A stretch of DNA of 64,000 bases from Escherichia coli (GCF_030013205.1 NZ_CP122648.1), one strand, 5' to 3'. Shown: positions 33,713 through 37,949, counted from the first letter of the stretch. The notes: generated from the sequence alone by a model not told the origin. Translations and numbers: made by a program.

Positions 33713-34507
33713 TCATAATAATTGCGGCGGCGCAAAGCGACGGTTGTTTAAGACGGGCAGTTGCGCGCGCACCTGACGCACACGTTCGGGCGTCACTTCC
33801 GCCATAATGAGTGCAGGCATTTCTGACGCTGCCGCAATGGTGACGCCAAAGGGATCTATAATCCGGCTTTGCCCGATATTTTTGTTCCCGCACTCCCCCG
33901 CCGCCACCATATAACAGGTGGTATCCAGCGCACGAGCGGCAAGCAACGTTGACCAGTGATGCTCTTTGAGCGGCCCACGAACCCAGGCGGCAGGAAGTAC
34001 CAGGATTTCAGCTCCCTGTAATGCCTGTGCCAGCGCCAGCTCTGGAAAGCGTAAGTCATAACAGGTCATCAGACCGACCTTCATCCCTTCCACCTCCAGT
34101 AACGGAGCTATTTCATTACCAGCATCAACATGGCGTGATTCCTGAATGGCAAATGCATCATAGAGATGCAGTTTGGCATAACGGGCGACGATGTTTCCTG
34201 CCTGTAGCGCCACCAGCATATTCCATGCGCGCCCCGGCGTTGAAGGAACATGAATCGTCAGAATTGTCGTCATCATGTTACGTTTACTTTCTCGCCGTAA
34301 ACGTCCGAGGAATTCGCCTTCCAGCAGCTGTGCTGATTTAACCGATAGATCTGCATCATGATCATCACGCGCCAACAATGCTTCCGGCAGGACAAACAGC
34401 GAAACGTCGTTTTCCGCCGCCTGCGCCATCAACGAGGCACAAATCTCAGCGTTCTTTTCCCACACAGATGTAACAGCAAACTGTCCTGCAGCAACCAGCA
34501 TTGCCAC
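33713..34507 (-). CDS. ybeM: C-N hydrolase (nitrilase superfamily) YbeM, apparently intact
   Basis: 264-aa uninterrupted ORF with catalytic-cysteine context [12 protein letters not shown]; the true start may be the second Met (34501). Confidence 0.8.
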
Positions 34508-34593: not shown

Positions 34594-34977
34594 GTGTTAC
34601 AACTTCTTTTAGCAGTTTTTATTGGCGGTGGTACGGGAAGCGTGGCGAGATGGCTGTTAAGTATGCGATTTAACCCGCTGCATCAGGCGATTCCGTTGGG
34701 GACGCTGGCTGCAAACCTGATTGGGGCATTCATCATAGGAATGGGATTCGCCTGGTTTAGCAGGATGACGAACATTGATCCAGTGTGGAAAGTATTAATC
34801 ACCACCGGATTTTGTGGCGGTCTAACAACCTTCTCAACATTTTCGGCAGAAGTGGTGTTTTTGTTACAAGAGGGCCGCTTAGGCTGGGCGTTACTGAACG
34901 TTTTCGTCAACCTTTTGGGGTCTTTTGCCATGACCGCACTGGCTTTCTGGCTGTTTTCCGCCTCAACCGCACACTAA
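34594..34977 (+). CDS. crcB: fluoride channel CrcB/FluC
   Basis: 127-aa small four-helix membrane protein. Confidence 0.9.
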
Positions 34978-34982
34978 AGACC

Positions 34983-35011
34983 AAAAAAAACCCGCTGATT
35001 AAGCGGGTTTT
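34983..35011. terminator. bidirectional terminator between crcB and cspE
   Basis: A8 run, CCCGCT-GATTA-AGCGGG hairpin, then TTTTG. Confidence 0.7.
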
Positions 35012-35030
35012 GAATTCTTGCTGACGTATC

Positions 35031-35240
35031 TTACAGAGCGATTACGTTTGCAGCAGAAGGGCCTTTGGCACCGTTAGTGATTTCGAACTCTACGCGCTGA
35101 CCTTCAGCAAGAGTTTTAAAACCATTAGTCTGGATTGCAGAGAAGTGTACAAACACGTCTTTGCTGCCGTCTTCCGGAGTAATGAAACCGAATCCTTTGG
35201 ACTCATTAAACCACTTAACGTTACCTTTAATCTTAGACAT
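35031..35240 (-). CDS. cspE: cold-shock-domain protein CspE
   Basis: 69 aa [20 protein letters not shown]..; the track ORF extends 28 codons upstream. Confidence 0.95.
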
Positions 35241-35414
35241 CAAAATTACCTTTACATGAAAAATAGACACAAATGCTGTGTCGGTTACCAGTACACCAAT
35301 TGTGGTACGCTTTGTCCAGTGCAACTTTACTAAAAAGTGATAAAAGTCGCGTTATTTTTGATGTTAATTATTTTACCCATTGATTTTAAAGAGTTTACTA
35401 AAATTTCATTTGTC

Positions 35415-35975
35415 TCAAAACTGAAAGCGCATCCAGGCAAAGTACACATTGCCATTGTTATAGGTACCCGGAATGTAGGTCATCTGAAAAGTCACTGGAC
35501 CATAACCCACAGAGGCCAATGGCAGTAGAACCGGGAGAGGGATGTAATTCCAGTTATCGCGTGCCGTTACGCCAGCGGTGAATCCCAGTCCTAAATGAAA
35601 ATTTTCATCCGCCAGCGGTCGCCAGGTACTTTCCCATCCGTATCCGGCAATCGGTTCCCATTTGTTCCACGAGTCCTTAAATGCCATGGCATACAGGCCA
35701 TGCCAGTTTCCTTTTTCATCCCAACGCGACTGACCAAAACCGCCACCCCACGGTCGCTCGTTATAGCGATCGGTTTTTTCTTTGTCGTAAGCGAAACGAG
35801 CATGCCAGGTGATGGCAGGAATATATAAATCATAATGTTCAGGCTGTTGCCAGGTTTGTGTAATATTTTCTCCAAACGTTGTCATCCACTCATCTGCGTT
35901 AGCAAAAACTTTACCAACGCTGATTAACTGAATAAAAACAAAGGAAAAGATAGCGACATATTTACTCACGTTCAT
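35415..35975 (-). CDS. pagP: lipid A palmitoyltransferase PagP (outer membrane)
   Basis: 186 aa from [14 protein letters not shown]..; the track ORF is 8 codons longer. Confidence 0.9.
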
Positions 35976-36460
35976 TTGTGACCATAAAACATTTATCAAA
36001 AATCTACTACTAGCATAGCAAAGCTACAATTAACATAACCTTAATAGCCCCAACATAAAGAACAATCTGAATAGCTGCTCTATTTATTTCCGCTTGTTTA
36101 AGTTAAATATTTCCGCGCATCGATTAAAGATGATGTATCGTTTTCTGCGATGGGAATAGTCAAAAAAGAAAAACCAAGTATTTTTTGATGACAAAATGCA
36201 ACCAAGGAAAAATTTCTTTATTTTTTAATTGGATACAAAAATCACCTTAACGAAGAATATAATATATATCGTCAACCCATGCTCATGGCAGATTATTTTC
36301 TGAGCACGCAACCGCAGCTAACACCATTGCTATTAACAAATTTGCATCAATCCGCCATCAATTTACACACATTATTATGTGGTAATTGCCAAACGCTAAA
36401 TATGCGTTTTGTTATCTATGTATAAAAACAGCAACTTCAATGTCTTAATGGCAGTTTTTC

Positions 36461-36474
36461 TTGATTTTAATCAG
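36461..36474. promoter_or_regulatory. FNR-like site TTGAT-TTTA-ATCAG upstream of dcuC
   Basis: 9/10 match to TTGAT-N4-ATCAA, centred about 96 bp upstream of the dcuC ATG; dcuC is known to be anaerobically induced. Confidence 0.4.
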
Positions 36475-36563
36475 CATTCATCGCCAATTTATTGGGCATA
36501 TTTTTTCCTTAAGTTTTAGGAATTTTTTATTATTTACTTTGGGGCCTGGAGACAGGAAAAATT

Positions 36564-37949
36564 ATGCTGACATTCATTGAACTCCTTATTGGGGTTGTGG
36601 TTATTGTGGGTGTAGCTCGCTACATCATTAAAGGGTATTCCGCCACTGGCGTGTTATTTGTCGGTGGCCTGTTATTGCTGATTATCAGTGCCATTATGGG
36701 GCACAAAGTGTTACCGTCCAGCCAGGCTTCAACAGGCTACAGCGCCACGGATATCGTTGAATACGTTAAAATATTGCTAATGAGCCGCGGCGGCGACCTC
36801 GGCATGATGATTATGATGCTGTGTGGCTTTGCCGCTTACATGACCCATATCGGCGCGAATGATATGGTGGTCAAGCTGGCGTCAAAACCATTGCAGTATA
36901 TTAACTCCCCTTACCTGCTGATGATTGCCGCCTATTTTGTCGCCTGTCTGATGTCTCTGGCCGTCTCTTCCGCGACCGGTCTGGGTGTTTTGCTGATGGC
37001 AACCCTGTTTCCGGTGATGGTAAACGTTGGTATCAGCCGTGGTGCAGCTGCTGCTATTTGTGCCTCCCCGGCGGCGATTATTCTCGCACCGACTTCAGGG
37101 GATGTGGTGCTGGCGGCGCAGGCTTCCGAAATGTCGCTGATTGACTTCGCCTTCAAAACGACGCTGCCTATCTCAATTGCTGCAATTATCGGCATGGCGA
37201 TCGCCCACTTCTTCTGGCAACGTTATCTGGATAAAAAAGAGCACATCTCTCATGAAATGTTAGATGTCAGTGAAATCACCACCACTGCTCCTGCGTTTTA
37301 TGCCATTTTGCCGTTCACGCCGATCATCGGAGTGCTGATTTTTGACGGCAAATGGGGTCCGCAATTACACATCATCACTATTCTGGTGATTTGTATGCTG
37401 ATTGCCTCCATTCTGGAGTTCATCCGCAGCTTTAATACCCAGAAAGTTTTCTCTGGTCTGGAAGTGGCTTATCGCGGGATGGCAGATGCGTTTGCTAACG
37501 TGGTGATGCTGCTGGTTGCCGCTGGGGTATTCGCTCAGGGGCTTAGCACCATCGGCTTTATTCAAAGTCTGATTTCTATCGCCACCTCGTTTGGTTCGGC
37601 GAGTATCATCCTGATGCTGGTATTAGTGATCCTGACAATGCTGGCGGCAGTCACGACCGGTTCAGGCAATGCGCCGTTTTATGCGTTTGTTGAGATGATC
37701 CCGAAACTGGCGCACTCTTCCGGCATTAACCCGGCGTATTTGACTATCCCAATGCTGCAGGCGTCAAACCTCGGTCGTACCCTGTCACCCGTTTCTGGCG
37801 TAGTCGTTGCGGTTGCCGGGATGGCGAAAATCTCACCATTTGAAGTCGTAAAACGCACCTCGGTGCCGGTGCTTGTTGGTTTGGTGATTGTTATCGTTGC
37901 TACAGAGCTGATGGTGCCAGGAACGGCAGCCGCGGTCACAGGCAAGTAA
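36564..37949 (+). CDS. dcuC: anaerobic C4-dicarboxylate transporter DcuC
   Basis: 461-aa polytopic membrane protein. Confidence 0.9.
   Translation: MLTFIELLIGVVVIVGVARYIIKGYSATGVLFVGGLLLLIISAIMGHKVLPSSQASTGYSATDIVEYVKILLMSRGGDLGMMIMMLCGFAAYMTHIGANDMVVKLASKPLQYINSPYLLMIAAYFVACLMSLAVSSATGLGVLLMATLFPVMVNVGISRGAAAAICASPAAIILAPTSGDVVLAAQASEMSLIDFAFKTTLPISIAAIIGMAIAHFFWQRYLDKKEHISHEMLDVSEITTTAPAFYAILPFTPIIGVLIFDGKWGPQLHIITILVICMLIASILEFIRSFNTQKVFSGLEVAYRGMADAFANVVMLLVAAGVFAQGLSTIGFIQSLISIATSFGSASIILMLVLVILTMLAAVTTGSGNAPFYAFVEMIPKLAHSSGINPAYLTIPMLQASNLGRTLSPVSGVVVAVAGMAKISPFEVVKRTSVPVLVGLVIVIVATELMVPGTAAAVTGK

Follow-up and report, generated by a model that had tools for sequence, protein, structure and literature searches.

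Class II FNR promoters, among them dmsA, narG, nirB and the model promoter FF-41.5, carry a TTGAT-N4-ATCA(A) inverted repeat over the -35 region, 22 nt from a weak -10 hexamer, with an FNR box centred near -41.5 being the canonical class II activating position. The same arrangement is predicted upstream of dcuC in the 64,000-nt stretch of Escherichia coli DNA analysed here, hereafter the window. Both the control of dcuC by FNR and the exact site are already in the K-12 literature, such that the result at this promoter is mainly confirmatory. The ChIP study of this site, by Myers et al. in 2013, came after the original dcuC expression paper, that of Zientz et al. from 1999.

In MG1655, Myers et al. 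(2013, PLoS Genet 9:e1003565, PMC3688515) counted dcuC as one of the operons that FNR activates directly, located a ChIP peak at 655,298, and predicted an FNR site of 12.38 bits, CTGATTAAAATCAA, on the plus strand at 655281, again with a ChIP-seq peak (Table S6). A peak at 655340 was detected by both ChIP-seq and ChIP-chip (Table S5), the dcuC peak was retained in an hns/stpA mutant (Table S7), and dcuC was scored as 'Activated' by RNA-seq of the wild type against fnr (Table S8), with an aerobic to anaerobic ratio of 0.05, equivalent to expression about 20-fold higher anaerobically (Table S12). The accompanying remark, 'TSS not in peak region', means that the dcuC start in their compendium lay elsewhere. 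These occupancy and expression data are published MG1655 data, rather than data from the strain of the window. Given that dcuC is 4.1-fold lower in an arcA mutant (Park et al. 2013), probably through an indirect effect, and that YeiE binds downstream of the dcuC promoter and represses it (Gao et al. 2018), FNR is not the sole input to this gene.

The divergently transcribed pagP is repressed by H-NS, derepressed in an hns mutant, and activated by SlyA and RcsB, with three SlyA-like sites reported at the gene (Chalabaev 2014). Its closest described relative is the pagP promoter of Salmonella (PhoP architecture IV, Zwir et al. 2012), where footprinting located the box TGTTTA-N5-TGTTAA, at a distance of 23 nt from the -10 element. 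In Shigella flexneri, phosphorylated PhoP shifts the fragment upstream of pagP in EMSA, and pagP expression is reduced in a phoPQ mutant; a Shigella screen for PhoP boxes with at most two mismatches missed pagP.

The pagP-dcuC intergenic region

The two genes and the spacer between them are located in the window as follows:

35415-35975, minus strand: pagP coding sequence (lipid A palmitoyltransferase), with the start codon as the complement of 35973-35975
35976-36563, no strand: divergent pagP-dcuC intergenic region, 588 bp, GC about 0.30-0.36
36564-37949, plus strand: dcuC coding sequence (anaerobic C4-dicarboxylate transporter), with its ATG at 36564

The gene order across this part of the window is tatE, a ybeM-type amidase gene, crcB, cspE and pagP, followed by the spacer and then dcuC, dpiA and dpiB; both this order and the length of the spacer are shared with MG1655 and strain K_EC180. 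The spacer is 100% identical to that of K_EC180 and differs from that of K-12 MG1655 at 29 of 588 positions (approximately 95% identity), and it is present in its entirety in 5375 of the 5426 complete E. coli genomes. An earlier note on this DNA, made by a model from the sequence alone, had described a 588-bp AT-rich divergent spacer, and was exact in its coordinates, with a GC content of 0.295-0.36 in 200-bp windows across the spacer, whereas the genes on either side are at about 0.5. Its further description of the spacer as unusually long is correct relative to most relatives, with lengths of approximately 285-310 bp in Klebsiella, Raoultella and Trabulsiella, approximately 390 bp in Salmonella arizonae, 410-465 bp in Citrobacter and 558-588 bp in Escherichia, but some Enterobacter reach approximately 900 bp, so the statement holds in relative terms only. 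In one urinary isolate, E. coli MINF_8D (NZ_LR890606.1, locus L083, 3001-4250), an IS1 element lies approximately 150-200 bp from the pagP start, dcuC, dpiA and dpiB are deleted, and citC directly follows pagP.

Divergence from MG1655 was compared between segments of the spacer, using the four-fold degenerate sites of dcuC, pagP and dpiA as the neutral reference:

Four-fold degenerate sites of dcuC, pagP and dpiA (reference): 32 differences in 450 sites, 7.1%
35976-36129, pagP-proximal segment: 3 differences in 154 bp, 1.9%, p = 0.016 against four-fold sites
36130-36400, no strand, Escherichia-specific AT-rich central spacer without detectable sequence constraint: 25 differences in 271 bp, 9.2%, p = 0.32 against four-fold sites
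36401-36563, plus strand, dcuC-proximal segment, the constrained dcuC control region from about -110 to the ATG: 1 difference in 163 bp, 0.6%, p = 8e-4 against four-fold sites

The spacer is very probably composed of two compact promoters that face apart, the one at dcuC being a class II FNR promoter, with unconstrained AT-rich DNA between them, rather than forming a dense regulatory platform. Scanning the spacer for the sigma-70 consensus returned 0 promoter-like sites, against 3.9 expected in shuffled sequences, as is to be expected of activator-dependent promoters; hence both of the -10 assignments made below are based on conservation and ChIP. Loose consensus scans of the spacer for NarL, IHF, CRP, RcsB, Fis and H-NS were empty or non-specific, and a search for repeats within it found one weak 15-nt direct pair, and one 19-nt inverted pair that is 79% complementary and separated by 461 nt, both of which were judged to be chance.

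The FNR site and promoter of dcuC

The elements assigned to the dcuC promoter are, in order:

36461-36474, plus strand: FNR box TTGATTTTAATCAG (TTGAT-TTTA-ATCAG), 9/10 match to TTGAT-N4-ATCAA, centre 36467.5, comprising TTGAT (36461-36465), TTTA (36466-36469) and ATCAG (36470-36474)
36497-36502, plus strand: predicted dcuC -10 element CATATT, at a fixed offset and with near-maximal information content
36509-36512, plus strand: predicted dcuC transcription start, placed from the -10 element, with a 5'UTR of approximately 55 nt extending to 36563
36554-36557, plus strand: dcuC Shine-Dalgarno sequence AGGA, with the ACAGGrGAA block before the ATG conserved across genera

The bare motif is not in itself informative: with at most one mismatch, the FNR consensus occurs 5 times in the 64-kb window, where 2.8 +/- 1.9 would be expected and at least 5 arise in 17 of 100 shuffled sequences, such that a 9/10 match is no rarer than chance over this length. 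Within the spacer, TTGATTTTAATCAG is the only match to the consensus with at most two mismatches. The significance of the box comes instead from its position, its conservation and its published occupancy.

The box is identical in MG1655, and as the window matches MG1655 over all of 36393-36513, data from K-12 can be transferred to it. Taking the FNR site as the tie point, position x of U00096.2 corresponds to position 691755 - x of the window. The published site CTGATTAAAATCAA is the reverse complement of TTGATTTTAATCAG, and the FNR peaks at 655298 and 655340 fall at 36457 and 36415 of the window. The same study gives anaerobic sigma70 ChIP-seq peaks at 655235 and 655742 of U00096.2 (PMC3688515), which convert to 36520 and 36013; hence, in the part of its peak table considered here, there is one peak per predicted promoter, and none among the peaks listed lies between them.

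Conservation was evaluated at 80 DcuC loci, with one genome per species of Enterobacteriaceae, drawn from Escherichia, Salmonella, Citrobacter, Enterobacter, Klebsiella, Raoultella, Lelliottia, Leclercia, Buttiauxella, Pluralibacter, Kosakonia, Trabulsiella, Mangrovibacter and other genera. The strict pattern TTGAT-N4-(A/G)TCA(G/T) was found upstream of dcuC in 78 of these species. The remaining two are S. arizonae, where the box is GTGATTTTAATCAG and the left half-site GTGAT, and Citrobacter amalonaticus S646 (L045), where box and -10 element are intact, with an insertion of approximately 235 bp between the -10 element and the ribosome-binding site. Across 78 unique anchored sequences, the TTGAT and TCA positions hold approximately 2 bits, while the inner spacer (approximately 0.6 bits) and flanks hold approximately 0-0.7 bits, with the four inner nucleotides varying between species as TTTA, TTCA, TTGC, TTCC, GCTC and others. 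Such near-invariant half-sites around a free spacer are the pattern expected of an inverted repeat contacted by a protein.

The distance from the box to the promoter is also conserved. A conserved block, TTnnTTnGGCAyATT, contains the -10 element (36491-36502), and in the same 78 sequences its GGCAyATT portion consistently occupies +34 to +41, counted from the T that opens the box, without indels; the gap between the box and CAYATT is 22 nt in the 60 anchored sequences listed, except for a few outliers such as L030 and L037. A start at 36509-36512, where the nearest purines are 36511-36512, would put the centre of the box at -41.5 to -44.5. The 163-bp dcuC promoter segment is present in 5378 of the 5426 complete E. 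coli genomes, at no less than 95% identity in all of them. Hence the motif is a real FNR binding site placed for the anaerobic activation of dcuC, as already published in K-12; what is new here is the occurrence of the box across 80 species and the fixed geometry between the box and the -10 element.

The earlier note had identified TTGAT-TTTA-ATCAG as a 9/10 FNR match about 96 bp before the dcuC start, which it considered consistent with the anaerobic induction of the gene. This was exact as to sequence and position, with the centre of the box 96.5 bp upstream of the ATG, and the same 14-mer is the published site of an FNR-activated gene (Myers 2013). The proposal also held when considered for conservation, with the box upstream of dcuC in 80 of 80 species, and for distance, with the box 22 nt from a conserved predicted -10 element, which would place it at about -41.5, and the nearby anaerobic sigma70 peak, from that part of the published table, 11 bp from the predicted start.

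As an alternative, AT-rich DNA could have produced the motif as a near-match by chance, or the motif could be a site for the related regulator CRP, with the anaerobic induction of dcuC arising elsewhere or indirectly. This reading draws on the lack of enrichment of such matches in the window, on a base composition that favours FNR-like sequences, and on the CRP-like GTGAT half-site of S. arizonae. Yet chance would not hold half-sites near-invariant in 78 unique orthologous sequences, at a fixed spacing from the -10 element, while their neighbours vary freely, nor would it account for ChIP-seq and ChIP-chip peaks on the site and FNR-dependent expression of the gene (Myers 2013). The half-sites are TTGAT and ATCA, rather than the TGTGA and TCACA that CRP recognises; the closest resemblance to a CRP site within the spacer, with three mismatches, lies away from the FNR box. 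This alternative is therefore exceedingly improbable, and can be regarded as largely refuted.

Activation by FNR is instead likely to follow the class II scheme, in so far as the geometry of the predicted start is a guide. The anaerobic [4Fe-4S] FNR dimer would bind TTGATTTTAATCAG approximately 41.5 bp upstream of the predicted start, overlapping the -35 region, and would recruit sigma70 RNA polymerase to a promoter with a weak -10 element (CATATT) and no usable -35 element; class II activation of this kind would then produce the anaerobic induction of dcuC. A geometry conserved across about 80 species would supply the class II assignment that was left open by the ChIP study of Myers et al.

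Several further observations concern this side of the spacer. The non-consensus last base of the box (36474, ATCAG) is conserved across genera as G, rarely T, with the consensus A absent from this position in all 80 boxes listed; this conserved G may tune affinity. A partly conserved A-tract block at 36421-36434, about -75 to -90 and 30-45 bp upstream of the FNR box, has the sequence ATAAAAACAGCAAC in E. coli, TGAAAAAATAACA in Salmonella and Citrobacter, and GCAAAAATA in Enterobacter and Lelliottia, and could be an UP-like element or the site of a second factor. The insertion in C. amalonaticus S646, at approximately 2215-2450 of its locus, lengthens the dcuC 5'UTR, and a repeat search found no internal repeats in it; its start (ATACTCGTCATACTTCAAGTTGC...) may resemble an ERIC element.

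The pagP promoter and its anaerobic induction

On the opposite strand, two elements are assigned to pagP:

36012-36020, minus strand: predicted pagP extended -10 element TGcTATGCT, with TATGCT at 36017-36012, the upstream TG at 36020-36019 and a start predicted near 36005
36030-36046, minus strand: phased direct-repeat hexamers TATTAA-GGTTA-TGTTAA (TATTAAGGTTATGTTAA), 12 nt upstream of the pagP -10 element

Read along the minus strand, the order is TATTAA-GGTTA-TGTTAA-TTGTAGCTT-TGc-TATGCT-N7-(predicted start)-ATG. The TATGCT hexamer aligns with the S1-mapped -10 element of Salmonella pagP, TATTAT (Zwir 2012), the TGn and TAnnnT positions are retained in most genera, and the second of the listed sigma70 peaks (window 36013) falls on it. 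In the aerobic Cappable-seq data for MG1655, no pagP-sense start is listed within 655000-655899 of U00096.2.

The hexamers are conserved across genera as TGTTAAG-N4-yATTmA. Compared with the PhoP box, (T/G)GTTTA-N5-(T/G)GTTTA, TATTAAGGTTATGTTAA has three mismatches and is among the best matches, which agrees with pagP having been missed by the Shigella screen at two mismatches or fewer; compared with an ArcA-type direct repeat, TGTTAA-N5-TGTTA, it has one mismatch and is the best match found. They probably constitute a response-regulator element of the PhoP type that is also ArcA-like, although which exact hexamers are used is judged from these similarities. The 75 bp or so nearest to pagP would contain a conserved promoter of the extended -10 kind, together with phased hexamers of the TGTTAA type for the OmpR-family regulator PhoP. 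The earlier note had suggested that the remaining approximately 450 bp might hold sites for pagP: this stands for the first 75 bp or so adjoining the gene, but not for the central 270 bp or so, which lack sequence constraint. No ungapped match to the SlyA consensus TTAGCAAGCTAA with three or fewer mismatches occurs in the spacer, and the three SlyA-like sites of Chalabaev (2014) were not reproduced; visual inspection does show a palindrome of the SlyA type, expanded by one base, in TAGCAAAGCTA at 36016-36026.

Expression of pagP (crcA) also rises anaerobically, by 3.4-fold, with the sigma70 peak over its -10 element growing in occupancy from 37 to 366 (Myers 2013, PMC3688515), and it is 2.8-fold lower in an arcA mutant, alongside many gad, hde and app genes (Park et al. 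2013). These increases could be read as bidirectional action of the one FNR site, driving pagP as well as dcuC. However, the centre of the box is approximately 460 bp from the predicted pagP start, which is far outside any known geometry of FNR activation, and the FNR-dependent operons tabulated by Myers et al. include dcuC, with pagP/crcA absent; furthermore, RcsB and GadE are known inputs to pagP. As pagP falls together with many acid-resistance and GadE-regulon genes in the arcA mutant, the route appears to be FNR-independent and probably indirect, and bidirectional action of the FNR site is extremely unlikely.

In a more speculative reading, the hexamers at 36030-36046 on the minus strand would serve as a dual PhoP/ArcA site. 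If true, this would explain the FNR-independent 3.4-fold induction, the 10-fold rise in sigma70 and the 2.8-fold drop in the arcA mutant, and would place lipid A palmitoylation under direct redox control. Park et al. (2013) predicted an ArcA site scoring 15 bits or more in the spacer, but no ArcA ChIP peak was seen in the spacer or at the pagP hexamers. Dual use of the hexamers is improbable, and an indirect route via GadE, RcsB or H-NS is more likely than direct action of ArcA at pagP.

The central spacer

Between the two promoters, the DNA appears to evolve as an unconstrained sequence at the neutral rate. Of the 5426 complete E. coli genomes, 1372 gave a megablast match to the central 271 bp, the majority of them at 80-95% identity, with at least 99% identity in 285 genomes, 95-99% in 17, 90-95% in 383 and 80-90% in 687. 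No seed was found in about 4000 E. coli genomes, and the flanking promoters were at least 95% identical everywhere; a 271-bp control segment from the dcuC coding sequence was found in 5411 of the 5426. Other genera either lack the central segment or have a sequence there that cannot be aligned with it. Within E. coli, it takes the form of discrete, deeply diverged haplotypes. Diversifying selection was ruled out as a cause of the central diversity, as divergence equals the rate at four-fold sites.

Two candidate elements in the centre were considered and rejected. A 48-codon ORF (36279-36425) has 7 non-synonymous and 2 synonymous changes relative to MG1655, is frameshifted in ESM1.4 and is without a Shine-Dalgarno sequence, and a terminator-like hairpin (36391-36409) has its stem broken, with no compensating changes, in MG1655, MOD1-EC7003 and E. 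whittamii.

The presence of this ORF and hairpin could nevertheless suggest that the central 270 bp or so are functional, whether as the gene of a small RNA or small protein that has escaped annotation, or as a sequence-specific insulator or regulatory platform, as could the greater length of the spacer in Escherichia than in most relatives, the position of the centre within H-NS-enriched DNA, and the recurrence of IS5 insertions in the spacer under kanamycin selection (Hoeksema et al. 2018). Neither the ORF nor the hairpin is conserved, however, and the central divergence of 9.2% does not differ significantly from the neutral 7.1% (p = 0.32) in a segment that other genera lack or carry in unalignable form. 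An Rfam scan of 34900-37000 in E-value mode gave no match in 35976-36563 at E <= 1, the sigma70 peaks listed include none between the two promoter peaks, the aerobic Cappable-seq data list no pagP-sense start for the spacer, and the spacer has served as the published insertion site of a cat-Mu SGS cassette. Hence a functional central segment is very improbable, and, as far as conservation can reveal, this DNA appears to have no detectable sequence-specific role.

The H-NS ChIP-chip regions of Myers et al. (2013, PMC3688515; Table S3) map to 35472-36171 and 36197-37165 of the window; Table S6 of the same study gives nucleoid-protein enrichment as 'None' at the dcuC FNR site, whereas the Table S3 regions span it. 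By the Table S3 regions, the whole region lies in H-NS-bound DNA, which fits the published repression of pagP by H-NS and its relief by SlyA and RcsB. A composition-dependent, sequence-independent role of the central spacer as a substrate for H-NS is plausible, and the length of the spacer probably represents neutrally evolving, H-NS-bound filler that was gained or expanded in Escherichia. This dissection of the spacer is useful for annotation, and for those using it as an insertion site.

Neighbouring genes

The only real Rfam match near the spacer is on the cspE mRNA, where the cspA thermoregulator family (RF01766) covers the whole cspE transcript region (34983-35341, minus strand) with a score of 119 bits, against a gathering threshold of 78, and E = 1.7e-31. 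In the published Cappable-seq data, the strongest local start (score 431) is at 656590 (+) of U00096.2, approximately 35165 in the window, and only weak starts (656393 and 656438) are found upstream of cspE. By converted coordinates, the 656590 start falls approximately 75 nt inside the cspE coding sequence, and the signal may be an internal or processed 5' end, or reflect a coordinate issue. The ybeM-type ORF for a deaminated glutathione amidase (33713-34507, minus strand) is intact in the window, where it starts with GTG and encodes 264 aa; it is also a CDS in K_EC180, a pseudogene in MG1655 (ybeM, b4581), and frameshifted in MINF_8D.

Comparison with known systems

The dcuC promoter resembles the class II FNR promoters in its anaerobic, FNR-dependent activation and in the occupancy of its site by FNR in vivo, both of which are likewise published for dcuC. 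It differs in its downstream half-site, which is ATCAG with a conserved G rather than ATCAA, and in having a start that is predicted from the conserved -10 element. Relative to its direct counterpart in MG1655 (Myers et al. 2013), the same 14-mer is found in the orthologous position, with no difference at the FNR site; the window nevertheless represents another E. coli lineage, with a central spacer that is approximately 9% different.

At pagP, the orthologous -10 element, the phased hexamers of the TGTTAAG type and the short 5'UTR are shared with the Salmonella promoter of PhoP architecture IV. In E. coli, however, the upstream hexamer corresponding to the footprinted Salmonella box has the degenerate sequence TATGTT, while the repeat that matches best is 12 nt from the -10 element, closer to it by one helical turn. 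Hence the PhoP box used at E. coli pagP may have shifted relative to that of Salmonella.

The spacer as a whole is similar to the divergent regions at hlyE, bgl and flhDC, which are silenced by H-NS and relieved by SlyA, RcsB or IS5. It shares their GC content of approximately 0.3 and their enrichment for H-NS, and the derepression in an hns mutant, the dependence on SlyA and the recurrent insertion of IS5 that characterise this class are matched at pagP or in the spacer. Yet, unlike the genes of that class, dcuC is still activated by FNR in the wild type, and its FNR peak is unchanged in an hns/stpA mutant; hence silencing on the dcuC side is at most partial.
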